A DNA stretch of 64,000 bases, taken from positions 57,133-121,132 of the forward strand of contig JAKVAR010000009.1 in assembly GCA_022447585.1 (NCBI GenBank), in the 5' to 3' direction. This document shows positions 30,805 to 54,298 of the stretch, piece after piece. Positions within the stretch are counted from its first letter, which is position 1; each line of letters begins with the position of its first letter. The stretch comes from Crocinitomicaceae bacterium. Lineage in GTDB: Bacteria > Bacteroidota > Bacteroidia > Flavobacteriales_D > Crocinitomicaceae. A program made the translations under genes and the position numbers. The notes beneath the pieces are model-generated. The model searched no databases and was not told the DNA's origin. It saw only the letters and a list, made by a program, of their open reading frames with translations.

Positions 30805-31567
30805 TTTTTTAGATTTAATAGATAAATATAAGTTCGGGTTAATTGCGACTCTTGCGGTGTACATGGCTATTTTTATCTATTTGCAGATGGATTCTTACAC
30901 GAGATATTTTCCCATTGAACAATTTAATGAAGGCTCTTATGTAGAGGTCCCAGAAGATGATATAAAATTAAGGCCGGAGAATATTCAAGTTCCGTCAGAT
31001 TACAATGTTGATGTAAAGAATATGTCGCGTGATGTAAATGATGATAGAGAGCACTCGAGCGAAAATTACAGTCAGAATAAATCTTTGGCCGATGTTGAAG
31101 CTGAATATAAAGCATTGGAAGAGCAAATGTATGAAGAGGCTGGAGGGCAGAAAACGCGCGATGAAATTCGTAAGGAAATGGCTGCACGAAAAGAGGCTGC
31201 TACCAGTGTAAAAACGAATTCTAATCCAAAGCCCGCGCAAGAAGGTGGTGATGTTGCCTATTCTGGAAATGTTATGGTGGATTGGAGTTTAGCGAAACGT
31301 TCTCCGCATCAAAATAATAATTGGTACGTAAGAAACCCGGGCTATACTTGCGGCTATGGTTCAGCAGGAACTGTAACTGTTATGATTAAAGTTAATCAAA
31401 ATGGGGACGTTACATCGGCTACCTATGATCCTGCACAATCAAGTGGAGGAAATCAATGTATGATAGAGCAAGCAGTGAAATATGCTAAGAAGTCAAGATT
31501 TGACTATTCTGGATCTGCTGCTAAAATTCAAACTGGAAGAATAACTTATACTTTTATTTCTCAATAA
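30797..31567 (+). CDS. Membrane-anchored protein with TonB-C-like C-terminal domain
   Basis: GTG start overlapping the upstream stop by 8 nt. It has one N-terminal TM helix, a charged linker and a ~90-aa C-terminal domain (GTVTVMIKVNQNGDVTSA...AVKYAKKSRF) reminiscent of TonB_C. Confidence 0.5.
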   Translation: MSNFLDLIDKYKFGLIATLAVYMAIFIYLQMDSYTRYFPIEQFNEGSYVEVPEDDIKLRPENIQVPSDYNVDVKNMSRDVNDDREHSSENYSQNKSLADVEAEYKALEEQMYEEAGGQKTRDEIRKEMAARKEAATSVKTNSNPKPAQEGGDVAYSGNVMVDWSLAKRSPHQNNNWYVRNPGYTCGYGSAGTVTVMIKVNQNGDVTSATYDPAQSSGGNQCMIEQAVKYAKKSRFDYSGSAAKIQTGRITYTFISQ

Positions 31568-32460
31568 TGAGAGACCTAATACGAAAAATGACTCCACAAT
31601 TTCTTTTGGAGCGATACCGAAAATCAAAGAAAAATCAGCGCAACAAAGAGCTTGAAGCAAATCGAGTTGCTGGAGATGTAATCACGTTAGAGTCCTTAGT
31701 TAAGGATATAAAAGCTTGTGGCGTTGTAGAAGGTGATACCGTTCTTGTACATTCTAGTCTTTCTAAGATCGGTTTTGTTGAGGGGGGACCAAAAACTGTT
31801 GTTGACGCACTGATTAAAGCTGTTGGAGAAAAAGGTAATTTATTAATGCCTACATCGCCTAATTCGGGGTTGCAATTGGAGTACATAAAGGCATTACAGG
31901 TTTTCGATGTTGCAAATGATAAATCGAAACTTGGCGCGATATCAGAATATTTTAGAAATTTGCCTAATTCTTTAAGGAGCGCTCATCCTACAGAACCTGT
32001 TTCCTGCTTAGGTCCTGATGCTAATTTTTTCACATCAACGCATTTTGGGGAAATGACTCCATATACGGCTCAAAGTCCTTTTTATAAGGTGAGTGAAAAG
32101 GGGGGGAAGATTTTGTATCTTGGGGTTACTCTGGATAACGCAGGAACAAACCTGCATACTCTTGAGGATGCAATAAAGGATTTTAAATTTCCAGTTTATA
32201 CGAAAGAGTCTTTTGAAATTGAGGTTAAGTTCCCTAATGGAGATTTGAGGTCAATGAGAACATATGTGCACAATCCTGAGCAATCTGCCAAACGTAAATG
32301 TGATGGTTTAATTCCATTGTTTATTGATAAAGGTGTGCTGCTAGAAAAAAGTATTGGAAAAGCAAGAACGTTAGTTGTAGATGCGAAATCTATGTTAAAC
32401 GTTATGATTGAAGAATATAAAACAAATGGGGTTACAATGTATACTCCAAAGGGTAAGTAA
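31567..32460 (+). CDS. AAC(3)-family aminoglycoside N-acetyltransferase-like protein
   Basis: GDTVLVHSSLSKIGFVEGGPKTVVDALIKAVGEKGNLLMPT, ...HPTEP, and a GxTLD..T.LH pattern typical of Antibiotic_NAT enzymes. TAATG overlap with the upstream gene. Confidence 0.75.
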   Translation: MRDLIRKMTPQFLLERYRKSKKNQRNKELEANRVAGDVITLESLVKDIKACGVVEGDTVLVHSSLSKIGFVEGGPKTVVDALIKAVGEKGNLLMPTSPNSGLQLEYIKALQVFDVANDKSKLGAISEYFRNLPNSLRSAHPTEPVSCLGPDANFFTSTHFGEMTPYTAQSPFYKVSEKGGKILYLGVTLDNAGTNLHTLEDAIKDFKFPVYTKESFEIEVKFPNGDLRSMRTYVHNPEQSAKRKCDGLIPLFIDKGVLLEKSIGKARTLVVDAKSMLNVMIEEYKTNGVTMYTPKGK

Positions 32461-36955: not shown

Positions 36956-37357
36956 ATGGATAAAAAAAACGTTCCTGTTGTTCTGTATGATGGAGATTGT
37001 GGTTTTTGCAATCGTTCTGTTGCTTTCGTCATGAAACAAGATAAAACTAAAACAATATATTTTGCCGCTTTACAGTCCAATTTCACGAAAGAACTATTCA
37101 TTCAAAATGATTGGGAAGAACCCGATTTAAGTACTTTTTATTTTATCGAGAAAGGCGAGTTGTTTCAAAAGTCGAAAGCTGCGTTGAAAGTAGCGAAGTA
37201 TTTTTCTTTTCCCTTCAATCTTATCCAAAGCTTTATCATTGTGCCTCGATTTATTAGCGACGGTGTCTACGATTTTATAGCTAAAAGACGTCAGAAATTA
37301 TCCAGTGGATTTTGTCTTATGCCAACCGAAGAGGAAAGAAAACGATTTATTCGTTAG
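36956..37357 (+). CDS. Thiol-disulfide oxidoreductase DCC family (DUF393) protein
   Basis: N-terminal VVLYDGDCGFCNRSV (DxxCxxC) signature. Confidence 0.85.
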   Translation: MDKKNVPVVLYDGDCGFCNRSVAFVMKQDKTKTIYFAALQSNFTKELFIQNDWEEPDLSTFYFIEKGELFQKSKAALKVAKYFSFPFNLIQSFIIVPRFISDGVYDFIAKRRQKLSSGFCLMPTEEERKRFIR

Positions 37358-38598
37358 TTATTGAAGGTTTTAAAGATTACTAGAAGTTCGTCAGGTGGAA
37401 CAATCTTATTCTCATGATCATTCATTCGATTTAAAACTTCATTTGTTGCCATTGGGTTAAGTCCCATCCGCATCCCGATGTTTTTAATATAATCGATTTC
37501 TTCAGTCCCAGCTTCTAAATCAACATTCATCAATAAAATCAATCGTTGAAATTGAACAATTCGATCTGCTTCTAGTTTAGGAGGTGTGAATTCAATGTTT
37601 TTTTCAAATACATACATAAAGTCATCTTTTGTTATACCTAATTGTGCAGCTATTGAAAATAAAAATTGAAATTCTATTTCTCGCACTTCATTGTCCGATT
37701 TTGCTAGTTTTACAAGGTCAGCTAATAGGCTAAGTTTCTCATCCCGTTCGGATGTTGCTTTTCCTTCTGTGCCTTTGAAAAAATCTAAGGTTAATTGACA
37801 GACTTGAGTCAAAGCCGTCGGCATTTCCGATTTTCCCCAGGGTTGATAGGAATCAAACGTGTGTTGGGTGCCAGGTATGATCTTTAGTTTAGTCTCTAAC
37901 CAACTTGCAATATGTTCACCTTCTTGTAATGGTACTGATGTGTCATTCTCTCCATGAATAACTAGGGTAGGAGTTGTTGAGTTTTTACAGTAGTTCTCAA
38001 TATTGAGTCGTTGTTCATAGTTCAAAAAGCTCTCGTATTGAGAATAGCTATGAGGCATAGTCTGTCCCGTTCTACCATTTTTACGATAGTAATATCCATG
38101 CTCTTGCCATTCTTTTAAATCCTTTCCTTTAGGAAAGCGATCCGAAATGGATGAAATTCCGGCCCAACTCACAATTTTAGAAACGAGACCATTTGAAGAT
38201 TGAAGTAAAGAAATCCCGCCACCGCGAGAGTGACCTATAACGTAAATTTCGGGCATTTCATCAAATTCATCTTGCACCAGGTTTGTTATTGCTTCAAAAT
38301 CTTGTAACTCTTTAACGTAGTTGTTTTGACCAAATGAGGCGAGGTCATCAAAATCAATTGGGTTTTCAATTGTACTTCCGTTGTGACTGGCATTATATTT
38401 AATGAAGCCAAATTGATTCTTTGTGAAAAAGCCTTGAACTAAATTCCAACAGCCCCAATCTTTATATCCCATGTATCCATGTATAAAAATGACTAGTTTA
38501 CCATTCCATTTAGAGGGGATAGAAAGGTCGTAAAGACTTTCCTTGTTGTTAGCTCCAGTAAAAAGTGCGTTCTTGATTTCTTTATTCATGTTATTCAA
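37354..38598 (-). CDS. Alpha/beta hydrolase fused to a C-terminal TerB-like domain
   Basis: Nucleophile elbow GHSRGG, with a later HGENDT and H (..GTQHTF). The last ~130 aa carry two SD/E..(V/I)..(E)E..(F/Y)(L/I)..(I/M)...(L/M)G(I/L) helical repeats typical of TerB/DjlA-N domains. Confidence 0.7.
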   Translation of the reverse strand: MNNMNKEIKNALFTGANNKESLYDLSIPSKWNGKLVIFIHGYMGYKDWGCWNLVQGFFTKNQFGFIKYNASHNGSTIENPIDFDDLASFGQNNYVKELQDFEAITNLVQDEFDEMPEIYVIGHSRGGGISLLQSSNGLVSKIVSWAGISSISDRFPKGKDLKEWQEHGYYYRKNGRTGQTMPHSYSQYESFLNYEQRLNIENYCKNSTTPTLVIHGENDTSVPLQEGEHIASWLETKLKIIPGTQHTFDSYQPWGKSEMPTALTQVCQLTLDFFKGTEGKATSERDEKLSLLADLVKLAKSDNEVREIEFQFLFSIAAQLGITKDDFMYVFEKNIEFTPPKLEADRIVQFQRLILLMNVDLEAGTEEIDYIKNIGMRMGLNPMATNEVLNRMNDHENKIVPPDELLVIFKTFNN

Positions 38599-38718
38599 TG
38601 GTTTTAATTAAAGCCAAATTAAACAAATTAATGAAGTTTAAATCGGACGGTTGTCAATCTATTTTTCAGTGGTTTTTAGCTAGTTCTTTTTCTTATATTA
38701 GCGACTAAATTCGAATTA

Positions 38719-39102
38719 ATGAAAGTCACTTTAATCCTTTTGTTTGCATTGCTCTTGGCTAGTTGTGGAAATGATTTTGGGAGCAAAGTCGTTGGTGGAA
38801 ACTTATCTGTCTATTACGTAGACAGTTCTGATAAGTTAAAAGCAGAGGCTTTAGCTATGTATTGGAGAGAGAATGATTTGATTTCAGGTGAACAGCAAGA
38901 CCTTCAATTGGTCAACTTTGAGGACGGCTATGAACTGAGAATAATTGCTAAAACTCCAAAAGGTGTTAAGAAAATGCCATTCAACGAGAGAAAACTGTTG
39001 TCTACTTTACAGGGGGTGTTAAGAGATAGTATTCCTTTGGATGGATTGGAGATTGTTTTATGCGATTCGAATTTTAAACCAATTTATAACATTAACGAAT
39101 GA
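38719..39102 (+). CDS. Small lipoprotein, unknown function (first gene of operon)
   Basis: Lipobox LLLASC. Its stop overlaps the next start (ATGA). Confidence 0.6.
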   Translation: MKVTLILLFALLLASCGNDFGSKVVGGNLSVYYVDSSDKLKAEALAMYWRENDLISGEQQDLQLVNFEDGYELRIIAKTPKGVKKMPFNERKLLSTLQGVLRDSIPLDGLEIVLCDSNFKPIYNINE

Positions 39103-40103
39103 AAATATCTGCATCAATTTATAGCGATAAGAAAAGGCCGTTAAATGAGGTTATTCAAGATTTAGTGGATCATCAAGTTGATTTACTTCATGTTGATTGT
39201 AATGATGATATATCGGTTTTTGATGATATTAAAACGATTAGAAGGCTTTGCGATATTCCGATTGATTTACATATAATTACAGAGTTTCCTTCGAAATACT
39301 ATTCTTTGTTGGAGGAGAATCCAGTAGAGTATGTAACGTTTCAATATGAAGATTTAAAAGAGCCTTTAAATATTCCGGATTCAGTTTCGGGAAGAAGAGG
39401 TATTGCGGTAATTACACCAACGCCAGTTACGATTTTTGAGGAGTATTCCGACTATGATTTTATTTTAATAATGGCGACTATACCAGGGCAGAGCGGAGGA
39501 AAGTTTGATACCATTAATTTTTCTAAGATTAGAGAGTTTGGCAATAAGTACCCCGGAAAATCAATCCATGTAGATGGTGGAGTGAATGCCGAAGTTTCGT
39601 TCATTATCAGAAATATGGGGGTTACAAGTGCGGTTTCTGGGTCATATTTGTTTAATGCAGCCAGTATTGGTAATGCATTGATGAATTTAACTAAACGTGA
39701 GGTTGAATCTCACTTTTCGGTAAGTGATTTTATGATTCCCATAGATGAATCGCCTACCGTATCGAAATCTAATATTAGTTTAAAAGGTGTATTAGAATCA
39801 ATTGATCATGGAAAACTTGGATTTACATTGGTTGTGGAAGAGTCTAATAAATTCGCAGGGTTAGTTTCAAATGCGGATGTCAGAAAAGGGTTGTTGAAAA
39901 ATATTGAAAATTTTAACAGTTTATCAGCAGATGAGTTAATTAATCATTTCCCAGTCACAATAAGCGATACAGCTACAGTACTTGAAATGTTGCAATTAAT
40001 TAAGACGAGTACATTTCCGATTTTATACTTGCCAGTAGTTGATGACGCTGGTTTTGCAAAAGGAATTGTTACTTTTGTCAACCTCATTAAAGGAGAATTA
40101 TGA
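39099..40103 (+). CDS. Ribulose-phosphate 3-epimerase-like barrel fused to a KpsF/KdsD-type CBS pair
   Basis: aa 1-~200 carry ISASIYSD, LHVDCNDD, DLHIIT, IMATIPGQSGGKF and HVDGGVN. These align by eye to the RPE motifs (SILSAD, HxDxMDG, DxHLM, PGFGGQ.F, DGG). aa ~205-334 contain two CBS motifs (..GLVSNADVRKGLL.., ..GIVTFVNLIKG). Confidence 0.7.
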   Translation: MKISASIYSDKKRPLNEVIQDLVDHQVDLLHVDCNDDISVFDDIKTIRRLCDIPIDLHIITEFPSKYYSLLEENPVEYVTFQYEDLKEPLNIPDSVSGRRGIAVITPTPVTIFEEYSDYDFILIMATIPGQSGGKFDTINFSKIREFGNKYPGKSIHVDGGVNAEVSFIIRNMGVTSAVSGSYLFNAASIGNALMNLTKREVESHFSVSDFMIPIDESPTVSKSNISLKGVLESIDHGKLGFTLVVEESNKFAGLVSNADVRKGLLKNIENFNSLSADELINHFPVTISDTATVLEMLQLIKTSTFPILYLPVVDDAGFAKGIVTFVNLIKGEL

Positions 40104-41098
40104 TACTACATCTTAAACCAAATATCACTGATTCAAAAGCTGTCGCAATTGCCGAAGAAGTAAATGCATTTCATTTTGTTTCAAATGGAACGAATGTGCT
40201 TATTACAGGATCAGGAATGAAAGAAGTTCCAAGTTCAATTGAAGATTCAGTTGATCAATTCTGGGTGTTTGATAACGACATACAGTTAGCTTCAAAGAAA
40301 TATCAATCTGAAAAGAGGGAAGTTAAAATTGGAAACACGGTAATTGGAGGTAAAACAAATAGAACGATTCTGATTGGTGGACCCTGCTCTGTGGAATCAG
40401 AAAGTCAAATTCGTGAGTCTGCTGAGCTGTTAGTGGAAATGGGGCTAACTACCCTGCGAGGTGGTTGCTACAAACCAAGAACGAGTCCATATTCTTTTCA
40501 AGGAATGGGCTATGAGGGATTGATGCTGTTGTCTCAAATGCGAGAAGAGTTTGGTTTAAATATTATTACCGAAGTTAGAGATGCTACGCATGTTCAGGAT
40601 GTGATTGAACATTCAGATGTTATCCAAGTAGGAGCAAAAGCAATGTATGATCAAGGTATTTTACGTGCCTGTGCCAAAACCCAAAAGCCGGTCTTAATCA
40701 AGCGCGGGTTTGGAACAACATTAAAAGAATTTGTTCAAGCTGCTGAGTTCGTTCTTTCGGGCGGTAATCCAAATGTGATTCTTTGTGAAAGAGGATTAAG
40801 AACATTTGAAACAAATACAAGATTTACATTAGATCTATGCGGTGTTGCTTGGTTGCAAGAGCATACCAATCTTCCAATTATATTAGATCCGAGTCATGCC
40901 ATGGGATATGCTTATGGTGTTCCTGTTTTGTCAAAGGCTTGCGTGGCAATGGGGATTGATGGTTTATTAGTTGAAGCTCACCGAGATCCTTCAGTTGCTA
41001 AATCGGATGCTTCTCAGCAATTAACACATGATGGATTTAGAGAATTACTTACTAGCTTGAAGCCTGTTGCTGAAAGCGTTGGATATTCTATGATATAG
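40100..41098 (+). CDS. aroF: 3-deoxy-7-phosphoheptulonate (DAHP) synthase, type I-beta, with N-terminal ferredoxin-like regulatory domain
   Basis: GGPCSVES, GGCYKPRTSPYSFQG, ILCERGLRTFE and ILDPSHA are present. The N-terminal ~90 aa (MILHLKPNITD...) resemble the Thermotoga-type FL domain. Confidence 0.88.
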   Translation: MILHLKPNITDSKAVAIAEEVNAFHFVSNGTNVLITGSGMKEVPSSIEDSVDQFWVFDNDIQLASKKYQSEKREVKIGNTVIGGKTNRTILIGGPCSVESESQIRESAELLVEMGLTTLRGGCYKPRTSPYSFQGMGYEGLMLLSQMREEFGLNIITEVRDATHVQDVIEHSDVIQVGAKAMYDQGILRACAKTQKPVLIKRGFGTTLKEFVQAAEFVLSGGNPNVILCERGLRTFETNTRFTLDLCGVAWLQEHTNLPIILDPSHAMGYAYGVPVLSKACVAMGIDGLLVEAHRDPSVAKSDASQQLTHDGFRELLTSLKPVAESVGYSMI

Positions 41099-41775
41099 TG
41101 AATTTAGAAGAAAACATAAGGGGGCTTTGCGATAAAAACGGGATTGATTTTATCGATTTCTTAGCTGATATGGATGTCGAAACAGTATTTGAACTTTCTG
41201 TATCTGACTTAGAAGTTATCTGCGAAGAATACGATTTGGATTTGAATGCATTGTTATTCAAGTTTCCGTTCAAATCAAACCATCTAAAATCAAAATTAGG
41301 TAAGATTAAGCTTTTGGTTATTGATGTGGACGGAGTTATGACAGATGGTGGAATGTATTTTACGGAATCTGGAGACCAATTTAAAAAGTTTAATACAAAA
41401 GATGGAATGGCGATCATTCATCTTACTAAAAGTGGTTTTCAGGTAGCCATTATTTCGTCAGGATTTAAGGGAGAGGCAGTTACTAAACGCGCTGAAATGT
41501 TGGGAATTCAGCATTGTTCTGTAAGTCGAGCTCCTAAAATGGAAACGTTAAACGTGATTTGTAAAGAACTCAATATTGCATTAGAAAACGTAGCCATGAT
41601 TGGCGATGATATTAATGATTTAGAAGTGATGCGAAATGTTGGATTCTCAGCTTGTCCAAAGGATGCTGTGAATGAGATTAAATCGCAAGTTGATGTAATT
41701 TTAGAAAATAAGGGAGGGCAAGGGTGTGTGCGAGAATTAATCGACATGTACATTCTTAAAGAACCATTGAAATAA
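41098..41775 (+). CDS. KdsC-family HAD-IIIA phosphatase (3-deoxy-ulosonate-phosphate phosphatase-like) with ~70-aa N-terminal extension
   Basis: The HAD core LLVIDVDGVMTDGGMYF...FNTKDG...IGDDINDLEVM aligns by eye with E. coli KdsC. The GTG start overlaps the upstream TAG. The extension reads NIRGLCDKNGIDFIDFLADMDVETVFELSVSDLEVICEEYDLDLNALLF. Confidence 0.8.
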   Translation: MNLEENIRGLCDKNGIDFIDFLADMDVETVFELSVSDLEVICEEYDLDLNALLFKFPFKSNHLKSKLGKIKLLVIDVDGVMTDGGMYFTESGDQFKKFNTKDGMAIIHLTKSGFQVAIISSGFKGEAVTKRAEMLGIQHCSVSRAPKMETLNVICKELNIALENVAMIGDDINDLEVMRNVGFSACPKDAVNEIKSQVDVILENKGGQGCVRELIDMYILKEPLK

Positions 41776-41778
41776 AGT

Positions 41779-42999
41779 ATGGAGAAGATTAAAATAGGAG
41801 TTATCAGAGAAGGAAAGGTGCCACCAGACAAACGCGTTCCATTGACACCTAAGCAGTGTAAACTTCTTGAAACTGTTTATCCGAATGTGGAAGTGATTGT
41901 TCAGCCAAGTCCAATTAGAGCATATAAGGATGAAGCTTATTTATCAGAAGGTATTTCCATGAATGAGGATTTATCCTCTTGTGAAATTATACTGGGAGTT
42001 AAAGAGGTTAATATATCTGACCTTATTCCAAATAAGAAATTTCTTTTCTTCTCGCATACCTTGAAGAAGCAACCCTATAATAGAGATTTGCTGAAAGCAA
42101 TCATAGATAAGAAAATACAACTTATAGATTACGAAGCATTGAAAGATAAAACGAACAAACGAGTTATTGGTTTTGGTCGTTATGCTGGAATTGTTGGTTG
42201 CTATAATGGTTTTTTGACTTATGGTTTAAAGCATGATCTTTACGATTTAAAAGCTGCAAATAAATGCGCTGACCGAAAAGAAGTTGAACAAGAGTTGAAA
42301 AAAGTTGAACTCCCTTCAAATACTAAGATTGTACTGACTGGTTTTGGACGGGTAGGACATGGTGCAAGAGAGATCTTAGATTTACTGCCAATTAAAGAAG
42401 TTACTCCTGAAGAATACTTGACCCAAGAGTTTAATGAGCCTATTTATACTCATCTAGAGGTTGAAGACTATTATTCTAAACGTGATGGTTCTGAATTTGA
42501 TAAGAATGATTTTTATGACAACCCGGAATCTTATAAGTCAGATTTTAAAAAGTACATTTCTCAATCGGATATGTACATTCCTTGTCATTACTGGAGTGAT
42601 AAAGCCGATTATATTATTACGAGAGATGATTTAAAAAGTGAAGACGTTAGGTTGTCTGTTGTAGCTGATATTTCTTGTGATATTGATTGTGCTGTGGCTT
42701 GCACAATTCGCCCGAGTAAGATTGCTGATCCAATTTATGGATATGACCCAAAAACTGAATCTGAAGCGGACTTTAAAGCTGAAGGTGTAATTGCTGTTAT
42801 GGCAGTGGATAATTTACCTTGTGAATTACCTTTGGATGCTTCTGAAGATTTTGGTGGTGAATTATTGAAAGAAATCTTTCCATCGTTAATAATTGAAGAC
42901 AAAGATCTAATTATTGCTAAAGGAAGTGAAACGACGTTGGATGGCGAATTGTCTGAATATTTCCAGTACTTGGATAACTATTTAAAAGGACTTGAATAA
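41779..42999 (+). CDS. Alanine dehydrogenase/PNT-fold NAD(P) oxidoreductase, saccharopine-dehydrogenase (lysine-forming)-like
   Basis: The N-terminal IGVIREGKVPPDKRVPLTP...ILGVKEV and central TGFGRVGHGA Rossmann motif fit this fold at 406 aa. Confidence 0.7.
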   Translation: MEKIKIGVIREGKVPPDKRVPLTPKQCKLLETVYPNVEVIVQPSPIRAYKDEAYLSEGISMNEDLSSCEIILGVKEVNISDLIPNKKFLFFSHTLKKQPYNRDLLKAIIDKKIQLIDYEALKDKTNKRVIGFGRYAGIVGCYNGFLTYGLKHDLYDLKAANKCADRKEVEQELKKVELPSNTKIVLTGFGRVGHGAREILDLLPIKEVTPEEYLTQEFNEPIYTHLEVEDYYSKRDGSEFDKNDFYDNPESYKSDFKKYISQSDMYIPCHYWSDKADYIITRDDLKSEDVRLSVVADISCDIDCAVACTIRPSKIADPIYGYDPKTESEADFKAEGVIAVMAVDNLPCELPLDASEDFGGELLKEIFPSLIIEDKDLIIAKGSETTLDGELSEYFQYLDNYLKGLE

Positions 43000-44423
43000 T
43001 GGAAAAAGGTAACAAGAAGATTATCAGAGGATGGGTCTCATACGATTGGGCCAATTCAGTTTATAACTTGGTAATCTCTTCTGCTATTTTTCCCATTTTC
43101 TTCGAGAAGTCAACAACTTTTGCTTATAAAGTAAGAACTAATCCACAGTTGAATCCAGAGATAGAGGCTGATCTCGATAAGCTTAAGGCTATAAGTGTCA
43201 GAACTGAAGATGTAACCTCATTTTTCTTTGGAGTTGAAATAACATCTTCAGTACTTTATACTTATGTATTAGCTGCTTCATTCTTGCTAGTTTCGTTTCT
43301 TTCACCTTTACTTTCTGGTATTGCCGATTATTCAGGGAAGAAAAAGACTTTTATGAAGTTTTTTTGCTATTTGGGAGCGCTTTCTTGTGTGGGTCTATTT
43401 TTATTTAATCCAAGTAATATGGGATTAAGCATGGTTCCTTTCTTTCTTGCAAGCATCGGCTTTTGGAGTAGTTTGGTTTTCTATAATTCTTTTTTGCCGG
43501 AAATTGCTGAACCTGAAGATCACGATAGAATTTCTGCAAAGGGATTTTCTATGGGATACATTGGAAGTATGGTACTATTGATTATTTGTCTCATATGGAA
43601 CATGGTACTTAAATTTCCAATAGAATATTGTTTCGTTTTTGTTGGTGTATGGTGGGTTTCATTTAGTCAAATTGCCTACAAGGTTCTTCCAAATAATGTA
43701 TATAATAGAAAAGCTGAAAAGGGAATAATTTGGAAAGGGTTTGAAGAATTGAAACTTGTGTTTTCAGAGTTTAAGAAGACGAAAAGGTTGAAAAGGTTTG
43801 TAACTTCATTTTTCTTTTTCAATACCGGTGTTCAAACCGTTATGCTAATGGCTACACTATATGCTTCAAGAGAAATCTTTAAGATTCCTGATGCATTGAG
43901 GGCTACCTTGACTCCCGAAGAAATTACAGCTAAAGAAGGTGAAGGGACAGCAGGTCTTATTATCGCGATTCTTTTGATTCAAATATTAGGTGCCGTGGGT
44001 GCATTTTTCATCTCTAAACTTTCTGGAAAGATTGGTAATCTAAAAACATTAACTATTGTGGTCGCATTTTGGATTCCGCTATGTGTATTTGCCTACTTTA
44101 TTCCTCAAGGAGCACATGCACAGTTTTACATTTTAGCATGTGGAGTTGGATTAGTTATGGGAGGTGTTCAGTCTTTAGCTCGTTCTACCTATGCGAAGTT
44201 TTTACCAGAAACAAAAGATCACGCTAGTTACTTCTCCTTTTATGATGTTACAGAGAAAATAGGAATTGTAATGGGCACATTTTTCTTTGGATTTATGGAG
44301 TACATTATGGATGATATTCGTGCCTCAATTCTTTCGGTTATATTCTTCTTTGTAATGGGTTTGATAATGATATTCAGAGTTCCAAAGCGGGAATTAGAAC
44401 TCGATGGTTTCGCTACTGAATAA
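42999..44423 (+). CDS. MFS transporter, UMF1/Atg22-like family
   Basis: N-terminal WVSYDWANSVYNLVISSAIFPIFF signature and about 12 TM segments. TAATG overlap with the upstream gene. Confidence 0.85.
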   Translation: MEKGNKKIIRGWVSYDWANSVYNLVISSAIFPIFFEKSTTFAYKVRTNPQLNPEIEADLDKLKAISVRTEDVTSFFFGVEITSSVLYTYVLAASFLLVSFLSPLLSGIADYSGKKKTFMKFFCYLGALSCVGLFLFNPSNMGLSMVPFFLASIGFWSSLVFYNSFLPEIAEPEDHDRISAKGFSMGYIGSMVLLIICLIWNMVLKFPIEYCFVFVGVWWVSFSQIAYKVLPNNVYNRKAEKGIIWKGFEELKLVFSEFKKTKRLKRFVTSFFFFNTGVQTVMLMATLYASREIFKIPDALRATLTPEEITAKEGEGTAGLIIAILLIQILGAVGAFFISKLSGKIGNLKTLTIVVAFWIPLCVFAYFIPQGAHAQFYILACGVGLVMGGVQSLARSTYAKFLPETKDHASYFSFYDVTEKIGIVMGTFFFGFMEYIMDDIRASILSVIFFFVMGLIMIFRVPKRELELDGFATE

Positions 44424-48367: not shown

Positions 48368-51300
48368 ATGAGGTACGTAATTTTAATTCTTGTACTGTTT
48401 TGCACCATGTTTTCATGGGGGCAACAACTGGATTTGGTTTTCCGCGGTACACTAATAAATCTAGATGCTGGAAAAAAAGAAGGGGCGGTCAAAGTAGAAC
48501 TAGTTCAAAATGGATCTGTTGTTTCGTCTTCGAGCACAGCTTCTAACGGTAAATTTAAAATTACTTCATCAGTTGATCAAACGAAGCCATTTGAAATTAA
48601 GTTTTCGAAAGCAGGATTTATTGGTAAAATGATGCGCTTCAATTTTAATGGAGTAAACGAAGAAGATATACCACCAGGAGGTGAGTTTTTTGATCCTTTT
48701 GAAATTAAAATATTCAAAGAAAGGGATAATGCAGATTTTTCATTTTTGAAAACTGAACCTGTTGCTCAATTTGATTGGAATTCAGCAAAACTAAGTCCTA
48801 GATTAAATTCATCAGAAGCAAATCGGATAGGAAATAAGATTCTCACACTTCTTGCAGAAGCGGATAAAAATAAGGCAGAGGCAGAGATGAAATACAACGC
48901 TGCCATTAAAGAAGCTGATGGTTTTTATAATGCTCAAAGTTATGAAGAAGCCTTGACTAAATATGAGGAAGCAGTGGGGTATAAGCCGCAAGAACCTTAC
49001 CCGAATGAAAGGATAGTCGAGTTAGATGCTTTGATTCAAGCACAGAAAAGTGCTGATTTAGCAGAAAAGCAGGAAAATGAAGAGTATTATAATTTGATTG
49101 AAGCTGGTGATAACTTGAGGGATCAAGATAATCTCGAAGGTGCAATCGCTAAGTATAAGGAAGCAATTACCAAAAAAGACGAACAATATCCAAAAGATCA
49201 AATCGCAACTCTATCTAAAACACTTGAAGATAGACAGAAAGCGATTGAAAACAAGACTAAGTATGATGCTTTAATTAAGCAAGCAGATGGATTTCTTAAG
49301 CAAAATAGTGTTAGAGCTGCTAAGGATAAATATACTGAAGCGAGCAAGTTGATGCCTCAAGAACAGTATCCAAAGGATAAATTGGCTGAAATTGAGGGTA
49401 AGATGCAAGAACTTGCCGAGAAGGAAGCGATTAAGAAACAATATGATGATGCCGTTAATGCGGCTGACGCATTGTTTTCGGTAGAGGATTTTGCAGGTGC
49501 AAAGGAGAAGTATAATGAGGCACTTACGTTTGAAAGTTCTTCTACCTATGTCAAAGCGCGAATTACGATTTGTGATGAGAAAATCTTAGAAGCAAAAAAT
49601 GCTGCTGAGACAGAAGCTAAAATTGCAGAACTTCTAAAGTCAGGTGCAGAATCTATGAATGCTTCCCAATGGGATGCTGCAAAAACAAGTTATGAGTCAG
49701 TTTTGGCATTGGATAATCTGAATGAGACGGCAATTACCAAATTGGAAGAAGTTGAAAAAGCGTTAGAAAACGCAAAGAATCAAGCGCTTCAAGAAGAGAA
49801 GTACGCAAAACTTGTTTCAGAAGGCGAATCTGCTAATAATTCAGGAGAATTAGAAACTGCTCTTTCTAAATATGAAGAAGCCCAAACAATAAAAGTAGAG
49901 CCTAATGTAACAACGACTATCCAAGAGATTAAAGCTAAAATTGCTGATAATAAAGCCGCTGCTGAAAAGAAAGAACAATACGATCAATTAATTGCTGATG
50001 GAGAATCTGCGCTATTAGGAGGGGATTTACAAGCGGCTAAAATTAAATTTGAAGGTGCTTCTAAAATTGATCCAAATCAAGAATTGCCGAAAAACAAACT
50101 TGCAGAAATTGAGACTTTAATGGCGAATGAAGCTGCGGATAAAGAGAAGGCTGCTAATTATCAAACGGCGATTGAAAGCGCGGATAATGCTTATAATCTA
50201 TCCAATTGGGAGGAAGCGAAAGCGAAATATCAAGAGGCAATTTCTATTGATGATTCTAAGCCTTATCCTTCTGAAAGAATTACTGAAATTGATAAATTAA
50301 TTAAAGAAAAAGAGTTAGCTGATCTTAAAGCGGCGGAAGATGCTGAGGCTAAAGCGAAATTTGATGCGGTTATCTCTGAGGCAAATACGTTATTTATAGC
50401 TAACGATTATATTGCAGCTAAGGCTAAATATGAAGAAGCGCAATCAATTGATCCTAGCCAAACAATTACTGCGGATAAAATAGCAGAAATAGAAGGAATA
50501 TTAGCTTCTATAGAAGCTGATAAAAAAGCTGCAGATGAAGCGCAGGCGATGAACGAAGCATATGAGGATGCTATTTCTGCAGCGAATACTGATTTTGAAA
50601 AAGGCAACTTAGAAAAAGCTAAATCTGGTTATGAGGCAGCACTTGATATTGATAGCAGTAAATCTTTTCCTAAAGAAAGGATTGTTGCAATCGATACTCA
50701 GTTAATTAAAATAGCTGAGGATGAAGCTAAGCATGCGCAAATTGAAGATTTGTTGGATGAAGGAGCAAAATTAGTTTCTGATGAAAAATTTGAGGATGCA
50801 AAATCAGTATATGAAGAGATTTTAACGCTAGATCCTGGTAATACTGATGCACAAGCTCAATTGACAAAAGTGAATGGCGAATTGGCATTACTTAAAAATG
50901 ACGCTGAAAAAGAAGCTGAATTTGTAAAGCTGAAAGAGCAAGGTTTCTCCTTGGCGGAAGGAAATCAATTTGAACAGGCTAAACAAAAACTCAATGAAGC
51001 TTTAAGCTTAAAAGATGATCCGGAAATTCGTTCTAAGATAGATGCAATTGATAAAGCCATAGCACAATTAGCTGCTCAGCAAGGAATTGATGACAATTAT
51101 AATGCCTTGATTTTAGCTGGAGAAAGTGCCCAATCTTCTGGGGATTATAAAGCTGCTATTACTAAGTATGAAGAGGCTCTTAGTTTAAAACCAAATGAAG
51201 CTATGCCTCAGGCTAAGATTCAAGAATTACAAAGTTTAATTGAAAATGAAAAAGCTCTAGTACAATTAGATGAGGAATATGATGATTTAATTACTCAGGC

Positions 51301-54298
51301 GAATACTCAAGTTATTAGTAAGGATTATGAATCTGCAATATCAACTTATCAGGAAGCTCTTAACTTAAAGCCTGATGAGACAATGCCTCAAATGAAAATA
51401 GAAGAGTTGCAAGCATTAATTGATGACGCTTCAAAAGCTGATGCACTTGATGAAAAATATAATACTGCAATTAGTGATGCCGCTGAGTTTGAAAGTATCG
51501 AAGATTATATCGGGGCAATTAAGAAGTATAAAACAGCGTTAGAGCTGAAACCAAATGAGTCATTACCTAAATCGAAAATAGCTGCTCTTCAATCCATTAT
51601 TGATGCCCAAAATGAAGGGCAAGCAAAATTAGATGCTGATTACAATAAGTTAATGAAGGAAGGGGATCAAATGATAGCAGATAAGCTTTATTTAGAAGCT
51701 ATTAAGAAGTTTAACGCGGCCTTATCTTTAAAACCCAAGGAACAAGCACCTGTGGATAAAGCAGCTGAAGCTGAACGATTAGAAAAAGCCAAAGGTAGAG
51801 AAGGAGATGCTCAGTATGAGAAAATTCTTACTGTTGCTGAAAAGAAAATTAATGCTTCTGAATATGATAGGGCTACTGAGTTGGTTAATCGTGCAATGAA
51901 GTTGAAACCGGATGATAGCAGGCCTCAAGCGTTACTAAATAGAATTAATGCGATTAAGGAGCTTGAAAATGATTACGATAATGCCATCACTCAGGGAGCC
52001 GTATTAATGGGAGCCAAAAAGTATCAAGAAGCAAAACTAGCCTATCAAAAAGCAAATGATTTAAAACCCAACGAACCTGAGCCAATTCAGAAGTTAACTG
52101 AATTAGATGCATTGATTGGGGAACTGGCTGACGCTTCTCAAAAGGAGTCGTTATATAAAGACTACATGACTAAGGGAGGGCTTAGCTTTGGTAAGAAGGA
52201 TTATCAAGGAGCCTTGGGGTATTATCAGAATGCTTTGAGTGTTAAAGCGAATGATACTGAGGCGGCCTCAAAAATATCTGAGATTCAGCAGATTATAGAT
52301 GATTTAGCTAATGCTAATGAAAGAGATTTAAAACTGAAGAATGAATTTGATGCAATAATTAACGACGCTGATGGTAATTTTGCAAATGAGTTATACTTAA
52401 ATGCTAAAAAGAAGTATGAGGAAGCATTGATTCTTGTGCCATCGAGTACTTATGCTAAAACTCAGATTAAAGAATGTGAGCGTTTGGAGAGAGCTAAAGG
52501 AAAAGCTGAAGCCGAGAAAGAATATAGAAAGATTATTACTGCTGCAGATAAAAACTTTGATAAGGCTTCTTACGACAAAGCAATCAACTATTACAATAGA
52601 GCTTTATCAATTAAAAATGAGGATCCTTACCCTAAACAAAAATTAGCAGAAATAAATGCAATTCTTAATCCTGTTTCAGTTGAGTCTTCTGAATTAGAGG
52701 ATTTAGGAGATCCATTTGATAATTCTCTAATGGATGGAGGTTTTGTCTTGCAACAAGCTGAAGCGGAACGAAAAACAATTAAAAAGACTAAAATTAATAG
52801 AAAACAAAGTAAAATTTTAGCTGAGGCTTCGGAATTGAGCTCTTCGAATACAGCTTCTCACAGAGAGAATTCAAATGAAATTTACAAAGTTCAAATGAAA
52901 ATATCTCGCGATGCAGGTCAAGGAGATTTAAATAGGCAAGCTACTGTAGACGCCTTAAGATTGGCTCAAGATGAGTTGGCTAATGAAGAAAGAAGTAATG
53001 GTATATATGAATACGGTGAAAATATTTCTGATCAAGGGACCTTAGATATTATACAAGAAGAGTCAACATTGGATTATGGTGAACGTCATAGTGTATATGA
53101 AGAAAATACTAAGATAATGACAGGGTATAATGAGGCACTAGCAAAAGCTAATATAGAGAAAGTGTTAACTGATTATGACAGAAATGTAGAGTCAAATGGA
53201 ACACTTGCAGAAGTAAAAGGAGCTATCTCAACTGGAATGCAAGAAAATTTTGTTGAGAGAGCTAAAACGGGCCAGCAAGTATTGAAGGTTCAAAAATCAG
53301 CCGGTCGTGTAAATACAGAAATTTCAGGTGATCGATATGACCAACTACTAGCACATGATAAAGATTTACATGATATTGCTTCAGCTATTGCGGCAGAGGC
53401 TATCCTTACCGAGGAGAAACCAAAAGAGAATAGCGAGTCTTTGATACTTGTTTCTACTGATGTTACGGAGGCTAATTCTGCAAGAGCTGCTGTAGAAACA
53501 AGCTCAGTTTATAAAGTTAATGCTGAAATTACTGAAGCAAAAGAACGAGCTCGCGATGAACAAGGGGAGATTTCTGAAAATAGAGAAGAGAATACCGAAG
53601 CTATTAAGATAGCGGAGAAAGATTATGCAGAAGCGCACTATAACGATTACAATGAAGAATTAGCAAAATATATTGAAAATAAGGCGTCTATTGATAATGA
53701 AACCGAATTAAATGGAGCTATCAATGACGTTGCTTTAGCAGCGCATGCAAAGAAAGTAAGTTACGTGGAGGTTATGGATAAAAAAGCACGCATCGATACT
53801 CAAGAGGCTGTTGATGGTGATGTTGAAAGTCGTTTAAAGGCCCAACAAAATATTGAAAATGTATATATCGGAGTTGGACATGAAACCGCAACCAAATTGG
53901 AAGAAAAGGAAGCGACTGGTGAAGCCCTAAAAGAGGTTAATAAAACTGTTAAAGCTCAAGATGCAGCAAATAATATTGGTCAGAACCAGAAGCATTATGA
54001 TGCCGCTGAAAAATTAAGTCAAGTGGATGATACTCCTAAAAAGAAGGTTAGGGTTGCAAATTCATTAGGTGAAGAATATCCAGAAGGTGTTAGTGAAGAG
54101 TCTTTCTCTAAAAGTGATAACGATGGATTAATTACTACAATTATTACGCGGCGTATCGTTGTTATAGATGGTCATGCTGACGTTTATATTAGAACTCAGA
54201 ATTTAAGTGGAGTTACATATAGTAAAAATGGTAAACCAAGTTTAGCACATGTTTGGCAAAAAGAAACGCAAGGTCCGGATTTGGAACGTCATTATTAG
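48368..54298 (+). CDS. Giant secreted repeat protein: CarboxypepD_reg-like N-domain + ~21 TPR-like ~60-aa units + ~540-aa charged C-terminal region
   Basis: 1976-aa uninterrupted ORF with signal peptide MRYVILILVLFCTMFSWGQ. aa 25-90 form a beta-sandwich-like segment (GTLINLDAGKKEGAVKVELVQNGSVV..NGKFKI), followed by the repeat array described in the next feature. Confidence 0.85.
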   Translation: MRYVILILVLFCTMFSWGQQLDLVFRGTLINLDAGKKEGAVKVELVQNGSVVSSSSTASNGKFKITSSVDQTKPFEIKFSKAGFIGKMMRFNFNGVNEEDIPPGGEFFDPFEIKIFKERDNADFSFLKTEPVAQFDWNSAKLSPRLNSSEANRIGNKILTLLAEADKNKAEAEMKYNAAIKEADGFYNAQSYEEALTKYEEAVGYKPQEPYPNERIVELDALIQAQKSADLAEKQENEEYYNLIEAGDNLRDQDNLEGAIAKYKEAITKKDEQYPKDQIATLSKTLEDRQKAIENKTKYDALIKQADGFLKQNSVRAAKDKYTEASKLMPQEQYPKDKLAEIEGKMQELAEKEAIKKQYDDAVNAADALFSVEDFAGAKEKYNEALTFESSSTYVKARITICDEKILEAKNAAETEAKIAELLKSGAESMNASQWDAAKTSYESVLALDNLNETAITKLEEVEKALENAKNQALQEEKYAKLVSEGESANNSGELETALSKYEEAQTIKVEPNVTTTIQEIKAKIADNKAAAEKKEQYDQLIADGESALLGGDLQAAKIKFEGASKIDPNQELPKNKLAEIETLMANEAADKEKAANYQTAIESADNAYNLSNWEEAKAKYQEAISIDDSKPYPSERITEIDKLIKEKELADLKAAEDAEAKAKFDAVISEANTLFIANDYIAAKAKYEEAQSIDPSQTITADKIAEIEGILASIEADKKAADEAQAMNEAYEDAISAANTDFEKGNLEKAKSGYEAALDIDSSKSFPKERIVAIDTQLIKIAEDEAKHAQIEDLLDEGAKLVSDEKFEDAKSVYEEILTLDPGNTDAQAQLTKVNGELALLKNDAEKEAEFVKLKEQGFSLAEGNQFEQAKQKLNEALSLKDDPEIRSKIDAIDKAIAQLAAQQGIDDNYNALILAGESAQSSGDYKAAITKYEEALSLKPNEAMPQAKIQELQSLIENEKALVQLDEEYDDLITQANTQVISKDYESAISTYQEALNLKPDETMPQMKIEELQALIDDASKADALDEKYNTAISDAAEFESIEDYIGAIKKYKTALELKPNESLPKSKIAALQSIIDAQNEGQAKLDADYNKLMKEGDQMIADKLYLEAIKKFNAALSLKPKEQAPVDKAAEAERLEKAKGREGDAQYEKILTVAEKKINASEYDRATELVNRAMKLKPDDSRPQALLNRINAIKELENDYDNAITQGAVLMGAKKYQEAKLAYQKANDLKPNEPEPIQKLTELDALIGELADASQKESLYKDYMTKGGLSFGKKDYQGALGYYQNALSVKANDTEAASKISEIQQIIDDLANANERDLKLKNEFDAIINDADGNFANELYLNAKKKYEEALILVPSSTYAKTQIKECERLERAKGKAEAEKEYRKIITAADKNFDKASYDKAINYYNRALSIKNEDPYPKQKLAEINAILNPVSVESSELEDLGDPFDNSLMDGGFVLQQAEAERKTIKKTKINRKQSKILAEASELSSSNTASHRENSNEIYKVQMKISRDAGQGDLNRQATVDALRLAQDELANEERSNGIYEYGENISDQGTLDIIQEESTLDYGERHSVYEENTKIMTGYNEALAKANIEKVLTDYDRNVESNGTLAEVKGAISTGMQENFVERAKTGQQVLKVQKSAGRVNTEISGDRYDQLLAHDKDLHDIASAIAAEAILTEEKPKENSESLILVSTDVTEANSARAAVETSSVYKVNAEITEAKERARDEQGEISENREENTEAIKIAEKDYAEAHYNDYNEELAKYIENKASIDNETELNGAINDVALAAHAKKVSYVEVMDKKARIDTQEAVDGDVESRLKAQQNIENVYIGVGHETATKLEEKEATGEALKEVNKTVKAQDAANNIGQNQKHYDAAEKLSQVDDTPKKKVRVANSLGEEYPEGVSEESFSKSDNDGLITTIITRRIVVIDGHADVYIRTQNLSGVTYSKNGKPSLAHVWQKETQGPDLERHY
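48890..52680 (+). repeat. Intragenic array of ~21 divergent tandem units (~180 nt / ~60 aa each)
   Basis: The unit consensus, read from the translation, is (K/E/Q)Y(D/N)xxIxx(A/G)(D/E)xxFxxxxYxxAxxxYxEALxLKPxExxPxxKIxEL(D/Q)xLIxxxxxxxxxx. Examples: NYNALILAGESAQSSGDYKAAITKYEEALSLKPNEAMPQAKIQELQSLI and EYDDLITQANTQVISKDYESAISTYQEALNLKPDETMPQMKIEELQALI. Confidence 0.8.

Follow-up and report, generated by a model that had tools for sequence, protein, structure and literature searches.

Does a bacterial operon that places a ribulose-phosphate 3-epimerase (RPE) barrel fused to CBS domains ahead of a 3-deoxy-7-phosphoheptulonate synthase (DAHP synthase, DAHPS)-type aldolase and a KdsC-family phosphatase serve aromatic amino-acid synthesis, or does it make a sugar acid of the kind of Kdo (3-deoxy-D-manno-octulosonate)? 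The question is raised by positions 38719-44423 of a 64-kb stretch of DNA from a Crocinitomicaceae bacterium (contig JAKVAR010000009.1; the whole stretch is called the window below), where six open reading frames (ORFs) follow each other on the plus strand. The three genes named above, called the trio here, are real, strongly conserved and without description in the literature searched. Their probable product is a Kdo-like sugar acid and not an intermediate for aromatic amino acids. With some reserve, we favour the reading that the trio is a self-contained, translationally coupled module which makes a free 3-deoxy-2-ulosonic acid, most likely for envelope glycans, a product of seven carbons being favoured. 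This reading is built on the observed linkage, clade structure, residue conservation and genomic contexts, from which we infer the catalytic steps, the substrate, the product and its destination.

The layout of the operon agreed with the original prediction, which had been made from the letters of the sequence and had described a six-gene operon with nearly gapless junctions. All six plus-strand ORFs were found at the predicted coordinates in the ORF listing of the window and every junction was recovered. Genes 1 and 2 overlap by 4 nt (ATGA, 39099-39102) and so do genes 2 and 3 (ATGA, 40100-40103). Genes 3 and 4 share 1 nt in a TAGTG at 41098, with GTG as the start codon of gene 4. Genes 4 and 5 are separated by 3 nt (41776-41778), and genes 5 and 6 again share 1 nt, in a TAATG at 42999. 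Domain searches returned the labels that had been proposed, namely an RPE-CBS fusion, a DAHPS, a KdsC-family phosphatase, a saccharopine dehydrogenase-like enzyme and a major facilitator superfamily (MFS) transporter. The first gene codes for a lipoprotein-like protein. The six-gene arrangement is far beyond chance. Chance or misannotated ORFs were ruled out as an explanation, as ORFs, junctions and domains were all confirmed.

To define the conserved unit, one genome per species was surveyed, which gave 68 loci with an RPE-CBS gene and 1,081 ORFs for clustering. Of these loci, 66 were counted with RPE-CBS, 62 with the aldolase and 60 with the KdsC-type phosphatase. The saccharopine dehydrogenase-like gene (41 loci) and the MFS gene (39 loci) were both restricted to the clade nearest to the window. 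No further conserved neighbour beyond these five genes emerged from the clustering of the 68 loci, and the flanks in distant lineages were unrelated. The lipoprotein gene was present in 22 loci, all from close relatives. Wide conservation as a unit therefore holds for RPE-CBS, the aldolase and the phosphatase only, and not for all six genes together. The prediction of a single six-gene module thus stands for the trio and fails for the lipoprotein gene, found only in close relatives, and for the last two genes, found only in one family-level clade. The neighbourhood check that it had proposed for the trio showed gene order kept across bacterial phyla, well beyond close relatives.

Within the trio, the first two genes are the most tightly linked. 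In 62 of 66 genome loci the next gene downstream of RPE-CBS is the aldolase; the other loci are truncated or split. The junction is a 4-nt ATGA overlap in 53 of the 62. A metagenome scan gave the same picture: all 38 loci with at least 600 nt of downstream sequence have the aldolase directly 3' of RPE-CBS, and 29 of 32 have a KdsC-family gene within 3 kb downstream. As a control, ordinary RPE genes without CBS domains were inspected in the metagenomes and none of 19 had an adjoining aldolase. Linkage persists in divergent members of the family also. Among 14 divergent representatives, one contig ends just past the gene and another cuts the aldolase; all 12 with room downstream have a DAHP_synth_1 gene next, at 25-40% identity. 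Altogether the pair is unseparated in about 110 loci from at least three phyla. An exhaustive search of 1.84 billion representative proteins collected only about 100 RPE-CBS clusters (50% identity) at E <= 1e-30, which makes the fusion a distinct family of modest size; full-length members of 335 amino acids reach down to about 26% identity in the same search. Carriers belong to Bacteroidota and Elusimicrobiota, along with one proteobacterium-like contig. Nearly all are metagenome-assembled genomes (MAGs), and one is an isolate, Taishania pollutisoli CZZ-1 (locus L065). The labels of 30 clusters that were looked up for a cultured carrier were all those of MAGs. A full-length RPE-CBS was not found in the plasmid collection. 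In public records the protein is named only 'CBS domain-containing protein' or 'pentose-5-phosphate 3-epimerase', and literature searches, with most subscription journals outside their coverage, gave no account of an RPE-CBS/DAHPS module. Canonical rpe, kdsA, kdsD and a second DAHPS were absent from the carrier-locus sequence searched, which amounts to about half a genome-equivalent, too little for the absence to be informative. No shikimate gene was seen as a neighbour of the pair in any context, in contrast to several annotated aroF references, which adjoin prephenate dehydrogenase.

The RPE-CBS gene (39099-40103, plus strand) codes for a barrel in residues 1 to about 197 and a CBS pair in residues about 205-334. 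The barrel matched Pfam PF00834 (Ribul_P_3_epim) with an E value of 4e-20 over profile positions 1-198 of 198 and remained below the rpe equivalog cut-offs (TIGR01163, 71.1 against 212.6; NF004076, 81.5 against 165). Identity to annotated rpe genes of the plasmid collection was about 29-32% (tblastn) and to solved RPEs 20-26% (structural alignments). In Foldseek searches with an AlphaFold2 (AF2) model of the protein (pLDDT confidence score 84), the top 26 PDB matches of the barrel were all RPE, with target-normalised template-modelling (TM) scores of 0.69-0.74. The tetrad His31/Asp33/His58/Asp159 aligns with that of canonical RPE and is kept in 14-15 of 15 family members of 25-62% identity. 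A deletion of five residues follows the HxD motif compared with canonical RPE, so that the loop H-x-D-x-M-D-G-x-F-V-P-N is not matched. Two of the methionines of RPE that are reported to cushion the enediolate are replaced by other residues in the window protein. As the full metal and acid-base tetrad is kept, the RPE-like barrel probably still epimerises next to a carbonyl, and by its residues the enzyme looks catalytically competent.

The CBS pair was of the KdsD/KpsF type, as had been predicted. Its best curated match was TIGR00393 (kpsF, the KpsF/KdsD family) over profile positions 157-267, which is the CBS part only. Its best structural matches were the CBS pairs of arabinose-5-phosphate isomerases 4o9k and 3k2v, which are presumably CMP-Kdo (cytidine monophosphate-Kdo) binders. 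The CBS region of E. coli KdsD matched family members down to an E value of 4e-12. Pfam and NCBIfam found no SIS domain in RPE-CBS and none anywhere in the loci, and no homologue of the E. coli KdsD SIS domain was detected in 1.88 Mb of carrier loci. We propose RPE-CBS as the putative first committed and feedback-sensing step of the route, its CBS pair being a probable sensor of a nucleotide or of a CMP-sugar made at the end of the pathway. One divergent homologue stands apart (L094, 8001-10518; 33% identity). It has His31 replaced by Tyr and the Asp of VDGG replaced within 'DICGK', losing two of the four catalytic residues, and it still has the aldolase and a 169-aa haloacid dehalogenase (HAD) gene downstream with overlapping junctions. 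This homologue may be a pseudoenzyme or a regulatory variant.

The second member of the trio (40100-41098, plus strand; DAHP_synth_1) is a DAHPS-family, type I-beta aldolase using phosphoenolpyruvate (PEP), with a ferredoxin-like (FL) N-terminal domain in residues 1 to about 62 followed by the barrel. It passed the curated DAHPS cut-offs (NF006421, 355.5 against 335; TIGR01361, 310.6 against 267.75) and did not pass those of Kdo-8-phosphate synthase (KDO8PS; NF003543, 129.6 against 242; TIGR01362, 126.1 against 314). Identity to the DAHPS of P. furiosus and A. pernix was 48-50%. Alignment with T. maritima DAHPS was collinear with the FL domain included, in line with the predicted KPRTS motif and ferredoxin-like domain. 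The window aldolase retains the motifs GPCSVES, KPRTSPY, LKRG, CERGxR and DPSH, which include the metal-site Cys and His motifs and the loop for the phosphate of erythrose-4-phosphate (E4P). Two motifs differ: GAKAMYDQGIL replaces GARNMQNFxLL and GYAYG replaces GRRxL. The K-A-N-R-S loop and the extended loop after the His ligand, both specific for KDO8PS, are absent in the alignment with E. coli KdsA.

To place the enzyme, 21 linked aldolases were aligned with eight annotated aroF or aroF-chorismate mutase genes, the P. furiosus and A. pernix DAHPS and E. coli KdsA, the last with a sequence confirmed by its annotation. In a neighbour-joining tree of the catalytic domain, a distance tree without support values, all 21 linked aldolases were monophyletic and sister to canonical DAHPS I-beta. 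Linked aldolases are 48-92% identical to the window enzyme and genuine DAHPS 41-50%. All 21 linked aldolases read G-A-K-(A/S)-M-Y-(D/N)-(Q/H) where all ten canonical enzymes read G-A-R-N-M-Q-N-F, so that the PEP-site Arg of the G-(A/S)-R motif is Lys in 21 of 21 against Arg in 10 of 10; most linked aldolases also have G-Y-x-Y-G where DAHPS has G-R-R-x-L after the His ligand. This Arg is a completely conserved PEP-binding residue in all DAHPS types, and the R and T of KPRT are E4P ligands (PMC6362186). With these ligands kept and the GAR loop changed, the acceptor-phosphate site looks E4P-like while another active-site loop appears to be remodelled in a clade-specific manner. The linked aldolases thus seem DAHPS-like yet appear to form a clade separate from genuine DAHPS.

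The third member (41098-41775, plus strand) is a KdsC-family phosphatase of HAD type C0. It scored 148.7 against a cut-off of 106.95 on TIGR01670 (KdsC/YrbI family) and stayed below the equivalog cut-offs for KdsC (NF007019, 139 against 208) and for the phosphatase of KDN (2-keto-3-deoxynononic acid) 9-phosphate (150.5 against 180). Its best solved relatives are the KDN-9-phosphate phosphatase of B. thetaiotaomicron (BT1713) and KdsC structures. The DxDG nucleophile motif is present as DVDGV, and all 59 family members have the carboxylate-binding Arg (E. coli R86, BT1713 R64). Where E. coli has R78 and BT1713 has E56, 58 of 59 members have F, Y, I, L or H, and at the position of BT1713 K67 they have M, L or V. 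All five solved gammaproteobacterial KdsC enzymes (E. coli and four others) have Arg at the R78 position. We take R78, E56 and K67 to be specificity residues, partly on the ground of mutant sequences in the PDB. A 68-residue N-terminal extension (window 41098-41301) is conserved in about 59 orthologues. It sits where the fused versions of the enzyme, found in glycan loci and described below, have a cytidylyltransferase domain, with no BLAST-level similarity to that domain. Neither the extension nor the lipoprotein of gene 1 has relatives in Pfam or the PDB. The phosphatase belongs to a distinct KdsC-family subgroup and is a putative ulosonate-phosphate phosphatase.

The contexts of the pair in other lineages point to surface glycans. 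RPE-CBS and the aldolase were found in O-antigen or capsule-type loci of at least five independent divergent lineages. Four of the lineages have both a phosphatase and a cytidylyltransferase there, and an RraA-like gene occurs in all five. L078/L079, L081, L083 and L095 have RPE-CBS, the aldolase, a fusion of CTP_transf_3 with a KdsC-type domain and an RraA-like gene in this order. L084 has a separate CTP_transf_3, the RraA-like gene, RPE-CBS, the aldolase, a HAD phosphatase of the beta-phosphoglucomutase (beta-PGM) type and then Wzt/Wzm. In L093, an Elusimicrobiota MAG, the RraA-like gene, RPE-CBS and the aldolase close a sugar-nucleotide locus. The neighbours in these loci include RmlACD, DegT, UDP-glucose dehydrogenase, ABC-2 exporter genes, glycosyltransferases of families 1, 2, 4 and 9 and a weak KpsC/S-type match. 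Aldolases of the glycan loci are 43-57% identical to the window aldolase over the full length, one of them being without the N-terminal domain, and identity to gene 4 is 39-48% for the phosphatase halves of the fusions. PseF and KdsB are remote relatives of the cytidylyltransferase domains, which score far under the family cut-offs. The RraA-like protein (206-218 aa) is present in every glycan-type locus (L078, 10166-10822; L081, 9952-10572; L083, 10029-10655; L084, 2891-3517; L093, 7361-7999; L095, about 3279); neither the window nor any of the 68 related genome loci has it. Among curated models it best matches the RraA-like half of archaeal hexulose-6-phosphate synthase fusions.

Two further contexts hold genes of the Kdo branch of lipopolysaccharide (LPS) synthesis. 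L096, whose barrel is 63% identical to that of the window, has a kdsB above the curated cut-off, an ARMT1/DUF89 phosphatase, RPE-CBS and the aldolase. Three non-orthologous phosphatases are thus placed at the same step (the KdsC type, the beta-PGM-type HAD of L084 and the ARMT1/DUF89 enzyme of L096), which argues that dephosphorylation of the aldolase product is required. The other context is a proteobacterium-like metagenome contig (L098, 2998-11450) with ptsN-hpf-rpoN-lptB-lptA-lptC-kdsC on one strand and yrbG beyond. The inverted trio occupies the slot between yrbG and kdsC, where E. coli has kdsD in its yrbG-kdsD-kdsC-lptCAB locus (PMC10448790). The adjoining canonical kdsC product is 47% identical to E. 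coli KdsC and has Arg at the specificity position. The trio phosphatase is therefore a paralogue that coexists with KdsC, and the trio travels from one phylum to another as a single block. An MsbA-like ATP-binding cassette (ABC) exporter lies directly upstream in L047/L051/L053, L074, L075, L082 and L147, with MsbA models as best match below their cut-offs. A PurM-like (AIRS) gene of about 390 aa follows the aldolase directly in three divergent lineages without the phosphatase (L074, 8022-9191; L147, about 10036; and the contig carrying P0185). It has a weak score on the purM model, and its position is probably incidental. The purM genes of Bacteroidota may themselves be divergent.

From these data a three-step route can be proposed. 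The RPE-like barrel would turn a central sugar phosphate into the aldose phosphate needed by the pathway. E4P is ribulose-5-phosphate (Ru5P) without the C1 hydroxymethyl group, so that deprotonation of C2 beside the aldehyde would give D-threose-4-phosphate; C2 epimerisation of E4P would therefore be the most economical candidate for this step. The DAHPS-clade aldolase would then condense the aldose phosphate with PEP to a 3-deoxy-ulosonate phosphate, from which the KdsC-type phosphatase would release the free 3-deoxy-2-ulosonic acid. In other lineages a cytidylyltransferase would next activate the sugar acid for a surface glycan; the window lineage has no activating enzyme within the operon. 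The retained KPRTS loop together with the absence of KDO8PS insertions favours a tetrose-4-phosphate acceptor and hence a seven-carbon product. RPE chemistry points the same way, as it can be transferred to E4P but can yield no aldopentose from Ru5P. The cytidylyltransferases and O-antigen, capsule and LPS loci of other lineages make an envelope glycan the most likely destination. The predicted parallel of the trio with KdsD, KdsA and KdsC, using different family members and undescribed in the literature searched, is supported by this arrangement.

A more specific version is offered only tentatively and is, in all its details, rather doubtful. In this version RPE-CBS would be an E4P 2-epimerase and the aldolase product 3-deoxy-D-lyxo-heptulosonate-7-phosphate. 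Once dephosphorylated, and activated with CMP in glycan loci, it would give a seven-carbon analogue of Kdo for LPS and capsules, with the skeleton of 3-deoxy-D-lyxo-heptulosarate (Dha). Dha is known from plant rhamnogalacturonan-II (RG-II) and from prasinophyte walls. It is also reported from the LPS cores of Rhizobiaceae (PMC5713287, by way of its reference 105). A 2012 review (PMC3355719) counted the activated form of Dha and its pathway among those not yet identified, and ulosonic-acid donors have so far been seen only CMP-activated (bioRxiv 10.64898/2026.04.20.719630).

The remaining genes of the operon are of narrower distribution. Gene 1 (38719-39102, plus strand) codes for a lipoprotein-like protein of 127 aa with a signal peptide followed by an LLASC lipobox. 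It belongs to no Pfam or NCBIfam family, and in 20 of 21 loci its gene shares 4 nt or 1 nt with RPE-CBS. Gene 5 (41779-42999, plus strand) is a dehydrogenase of the alanine dehydrogenase/pyridine nucleotide transhydrogenase (AlaDH/PNT) fold with the Pfam domain AlaDh_PNT_N. It is homologous to the lysine-ketoglutarate reductase (LKR) domain of human AASS (E value 3.9e-36, residues 6-374) and matched yeast Lys1 with an E value of 1e-12; no NCBIfam model matched it. Arg, Lys and His positions that we take, from studies of yeast Lys1, to bind 2-oxoglutarate or to act in catalysis are retained, and the protein looks to keep the hallmarks of a genuine LKR. Its gene comes after that of the phosphatase in 41 of the 68 loci from genomes and in 13 of 29 from metagenomes, every one of them within the clade nearest to the window; the median gap is 4 nt. 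Gene 6 (42999-44423, plus strand) is an MFS transporter of the ATG22/UMF1 type (Pfam PF11700, 216.4 bits against a gathering score of 24.1, residues 5-462). It is found in 39 of the 68 genome loci, immediately behind the LKR-like gene and with a median gap of 8 nt. This pair is absent from every other sampled lineage that carries the trio. The LKR-like and MFS genes are a clade-specific, family-level add-on.

Several points weigh against a sugar-acid module, and most of them suit the plainest alternative, that nothing but an operon is shared. Curated hidden Markov models (HMMs) call the aldolase DAHPS (NF006421 and TIGR01361 both passed), and it retains the E4P-phosphate ligands and a regulatory-type N-terminal domain. 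The operon of the window clade lies in a syntenic region of the core chromosome and has been inherited vertically across the whole family, as would be expected of a housekeeping function more than of a surface sugar that varies between strains. Neither the window nor the 68 related genome loci contain a cytidylyltransferase, glycosyltransferase or RraA-like gene. From its known substrates, RPE chemistry yields ketoses, which are not aldolase acceptors, and the epimerisation of E4P is a step that we infer. On the plain account, the aldolase would be the housekeeping, feedback-regulated DAHPS, RPE-CBS an epimerase paralogue which helps to supply E4P and the phosphatase the housekeeping KdsC, without a shared pathway. 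The metal ligands, the KPRTS motif and the FL-type N-terminal domain, all as in T. maritima DAHPS, are as expected from it, and so are the passed DAHPS models, the core-chromosome setting with vertical inheritance and the lack of glycan genes nearby in the window lineage. It does not explain why the aldolase clade is separate from genuine DAHPS with Lys for the PEP-site Arg in every member, nor why this clade includes members inside O-antigen or capsule loci with cytidylyltransferases. The pair stays unseparated in about 110 loci of at least three phyla whereas ordinary rpe is never linked to an aldolase, no shikimate gene was seen as neighbour and DAHP would be drained if a phosphatase of altered specificity were co-translated with a housekeeping DAHPS. 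The unit has also been transferred into a proteobacterial LPS locus which already has kdsC. The original prediction had itself raised a mundane housekeeping DAHPS as alternative; the separate clade, the altered PEP-site loop, the relatives in glycan clusters, the trio beside kdsC in L098 and the mobility between phyla make it hard to sustain, and we regard it as the least probable of the alternatives.

If a sugar acid is accepted as the product, it could be Kdo itself, with RPE-CBS in the role of KdsD making arabinose-5-phosphate, the aldolase as Kdo-8-phosphate synthase and the KdsC-type enzyme as Kdo-8-phosphate phosphatase, replacing or supplementing kdsD, kdsA and kdsC in LPS or capsule synthesis. 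A CBS pair of the KdsD/KpsF type by both sequence and structure, a phosphatase above the KdsC-family cut-off, a bona fide kdsB at the head of the L096 operon and the position of the L098 trio exactly in the E. coli kdsD slot of the yrbG-kdsC-lptCAB locus all speak for it. MsbA-like exporters directly upstream in several lineages would agree as well, even if they fall under the MsbA equivalog cut-off, and family-wide vertical conservation would suit an essential LPS function. The P. furiosus DAHPS, which has the KPRTS loop too, reportedly accepts arabinose-5-phosphate. The enzymes themselves argue otherwise. The aldolase has the short K-P-R-T-S loop and not K-A-N-R-S, it has no long KDO8PS insertion after the His ligand and the KDO8PS models reach 126-130 bits against cut-offs of 242-314. 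The RPE tetrad implies epimerisation of the C3 type, which gives no arabinose-5-phosphate from Ru5P, and no SIS domain occurs in the loci. The phosphatase is without the Arg of all five solved gammaproteobacterial KdsCs, and L098 retains a canonical kdsC next to the trio. Glycan loci carry a private aldolase, a private phosphatase and a divergent cytidylyltransferase far under the KdsB cut-offs, a complete enzyme set that would be needless for Kdo, which the cell already makes. We consider this route unlikely. Less likely still is an opine-like product in the window clade, for which the LKR-like enzyme would reductively condense the ulosonic acid with an amine and the ATG22-type MFS transporter would export or import the resulting N-(carboxyalkyl) compound. 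In about 40 species-level genomes both genes come after the phosphatase, the median gaps being 4 and 8 nt, LKR-family enzymes are established to condense amines with 2-oxo acids, and with no cytidylyltransferase in cis in the window clade the fate of the free acid is left open. Against this, the pair is absent from all other trio-carrying lineages, and an alignment with human LKR at E 4e-36 fits ordinary lysine catabolism. ATG22-family transporters are tied to amino-acid transport. A module for a free 3-deoxy-2-ulosonic acid, probably of seven carbons, remains the reading that we favour.

Ulosonic acids such as Kdo, the sialic, legionaminic and pseudaminic acids and Kdn are key determinants of the bacterial surface, and their pathways are targets for antibiotics and vaccines. 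To our knowledge, all known routes to them use KdsA-type or NeuB-type synthases. The trio is a putative variant of ulosonic-acid biosynthesis with unexpectedly recruited enzymes. If this is true, a DAHPS-clade aldolase with an RPE-derived enzyme would be a third way to ulosonic acids. The names '3-deoxy-7-phosphoheptulonate synthase', 'ribulose-phosphate 3-epimerase' and 'CBS domain-containing protein' would then be mis-assigned in metabolic reconstructions of abundant marine and freshwater Flavobacteriales, which could in turn be called prototrophic for aromatic amino acids, or complete in the pentose-phosphate pathway, by error. The trio would also be a candidate for the unexplained origin of seven-carbon 3-deoxy-ulosonic and ulosaric acids. 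The cultured carrier Taishania pollutisoli CZZ-1 makes testing feasible.

The operon is embedded in ordinary core chromosome of low GC content, of Flavobacteriales type and Crocinitomicaceae-like by its best matches. Genes for Rho, a type III glutamine synthetase, GcvT and a Mur ligase lie there, along with a pigment cluster of the flexirubin type. The proteins of the 64-kb window include no shikimate enzyme besides the aldolase under discussion, as had been predicted, and no Kdo enzyme or cytidylyltransferase. Composition is uniform, and the flanking genes for 3-hydroxyacyl-CoA dehydrogenase, a DCC1-like protein, a hydrolase-TerB protein and GcvT are syntenic in related MAGs, which ruled out a genomic island or recent transfer in the window. 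The sole sizeable non-coding gap before the six genes, 120 nt at 38599-38718, is presumed to hold the operon promoter. Scans for a sigma-70 consensus promoter and for terminators gave matches no better than shuffles, a null result expected for sigma-70 in Bacteroidota. No Rfam family reached its gathering score on either strand of the whole window, which speaks against a regulatory RNA leader. The divergent gene upstream of the operon (37354-38598, minus strand) codes for an alpha/beta-hydrolase fused to a TerB-like C-terminal domain; with 30 of 68 loci it ranks next in conservation among the neighbours. Elsewhere in the window, positions 1556-12961 hold a cluster typical of flexirubin or aryl-polyene-type pigment synthesis. 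It codes for an O-methyltransferase, a 1,271-aa MMPL-acyltransferase-methyltransferase fusion, an amine-oxidase/desaturase-like protein, an FAD halogenase-like protein, an AMP-binding enzyme, an AAT-family acyltransferase and a phosphopantetheinyl transferase. Positions 28687-32460 code, with overlapping junctions, for a 705-aa WG-repeat protein, an unassigned 256-aa protein and a protein of the aminoglycoside-3-N-acetyltransferase family, a block kept in about nine related loci. A tetratricopeptide repeat (TPR) protein of 1,976 aa followed by an ApbE flavin-transferase gene occupies 48368-54298, the longest-ORF start of the latter overlapping the end of the former by 50 nt.

Among known systems, the Kdo branch (KdsD, KdsA, KdsC, KdsB) agrees with the trio in logic and gene order. 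In both, a sugar-phosphate enzyme that carries a KdsD-type CBS pair is followed by a PEP aldolase from the DAHPS/KDO8PS superfamily and by a KdsC-family phosphatase; a cytidylyltransferase completes the trio in other lineages, and in L098 the trio takes the place of kdsD. The catalytic part of the first enzyme is an RPE barrel where KdsD has a SIS domain, however, the aldolase falls on the DAHPS side and the phosphatase is without the KdsC Arg at the specificity position. With type I-beta DAHPS (that of T. maritima, and the unadorned enzymes of P. furiosus and A. pernix) the aldolase shares about 48-50% barrel identity, the metal-site and LKRG/CERGxR/DPSH motifs, KPRTS and a collinear N-terminal domain, but the linked aldolases form a separate clade with GAKAMYD(Q/H)G for GARNMQNF in 21 of 21 and are always coupled to RPE-CBS. 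Rpe and AlsE (D-allulose-6-phosphate 3-epimerase) have the same (beta/alpha)8 fold, His-Asp-His-Asp tetrad and phosphate-binding Gly/Ser motifs as RPE-CBS, which differs from them in the deletion after HxD, the C-terminal CBS pair and the obligatory aldolase partner. The LKR/saccharopine dehydrogenase proteins (human AASS, yeast Lys1) align with gene 5 over its whole length and share the AlaDh_PNT_N domain, but gene 5 is monofunctional and shares its operon with a sugar-acid module and an ATG22-type transporter. Modules for other ulosonic acids, namely the B. thetaiotaomicron KDN module, the Neu/Leg/Pse (neuraminic, legionaminic and pseudaminic acid) clusters and the E. coli group 2 capsule genes kpsF/kpsU, resemble the proposed route in PEP condensation, dephosphorylation by a KdsC-family enzyme, CMP activation and transfer to a surface glycan. 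BT1713 is the best solved relative of the phosphatase, and fusions of cytidylyltransferase with KdsC-type domains occur there too. None of these known modules has what sets the trio apart, namely a condensing enzyme of the DAHPS family in place of the NeuB family, to which the synthase of the B. thetaiotaomicron KDN module presumably belongs, and as its constant partners RPE-CBS and, in glycan loci, the RraA-like protein.

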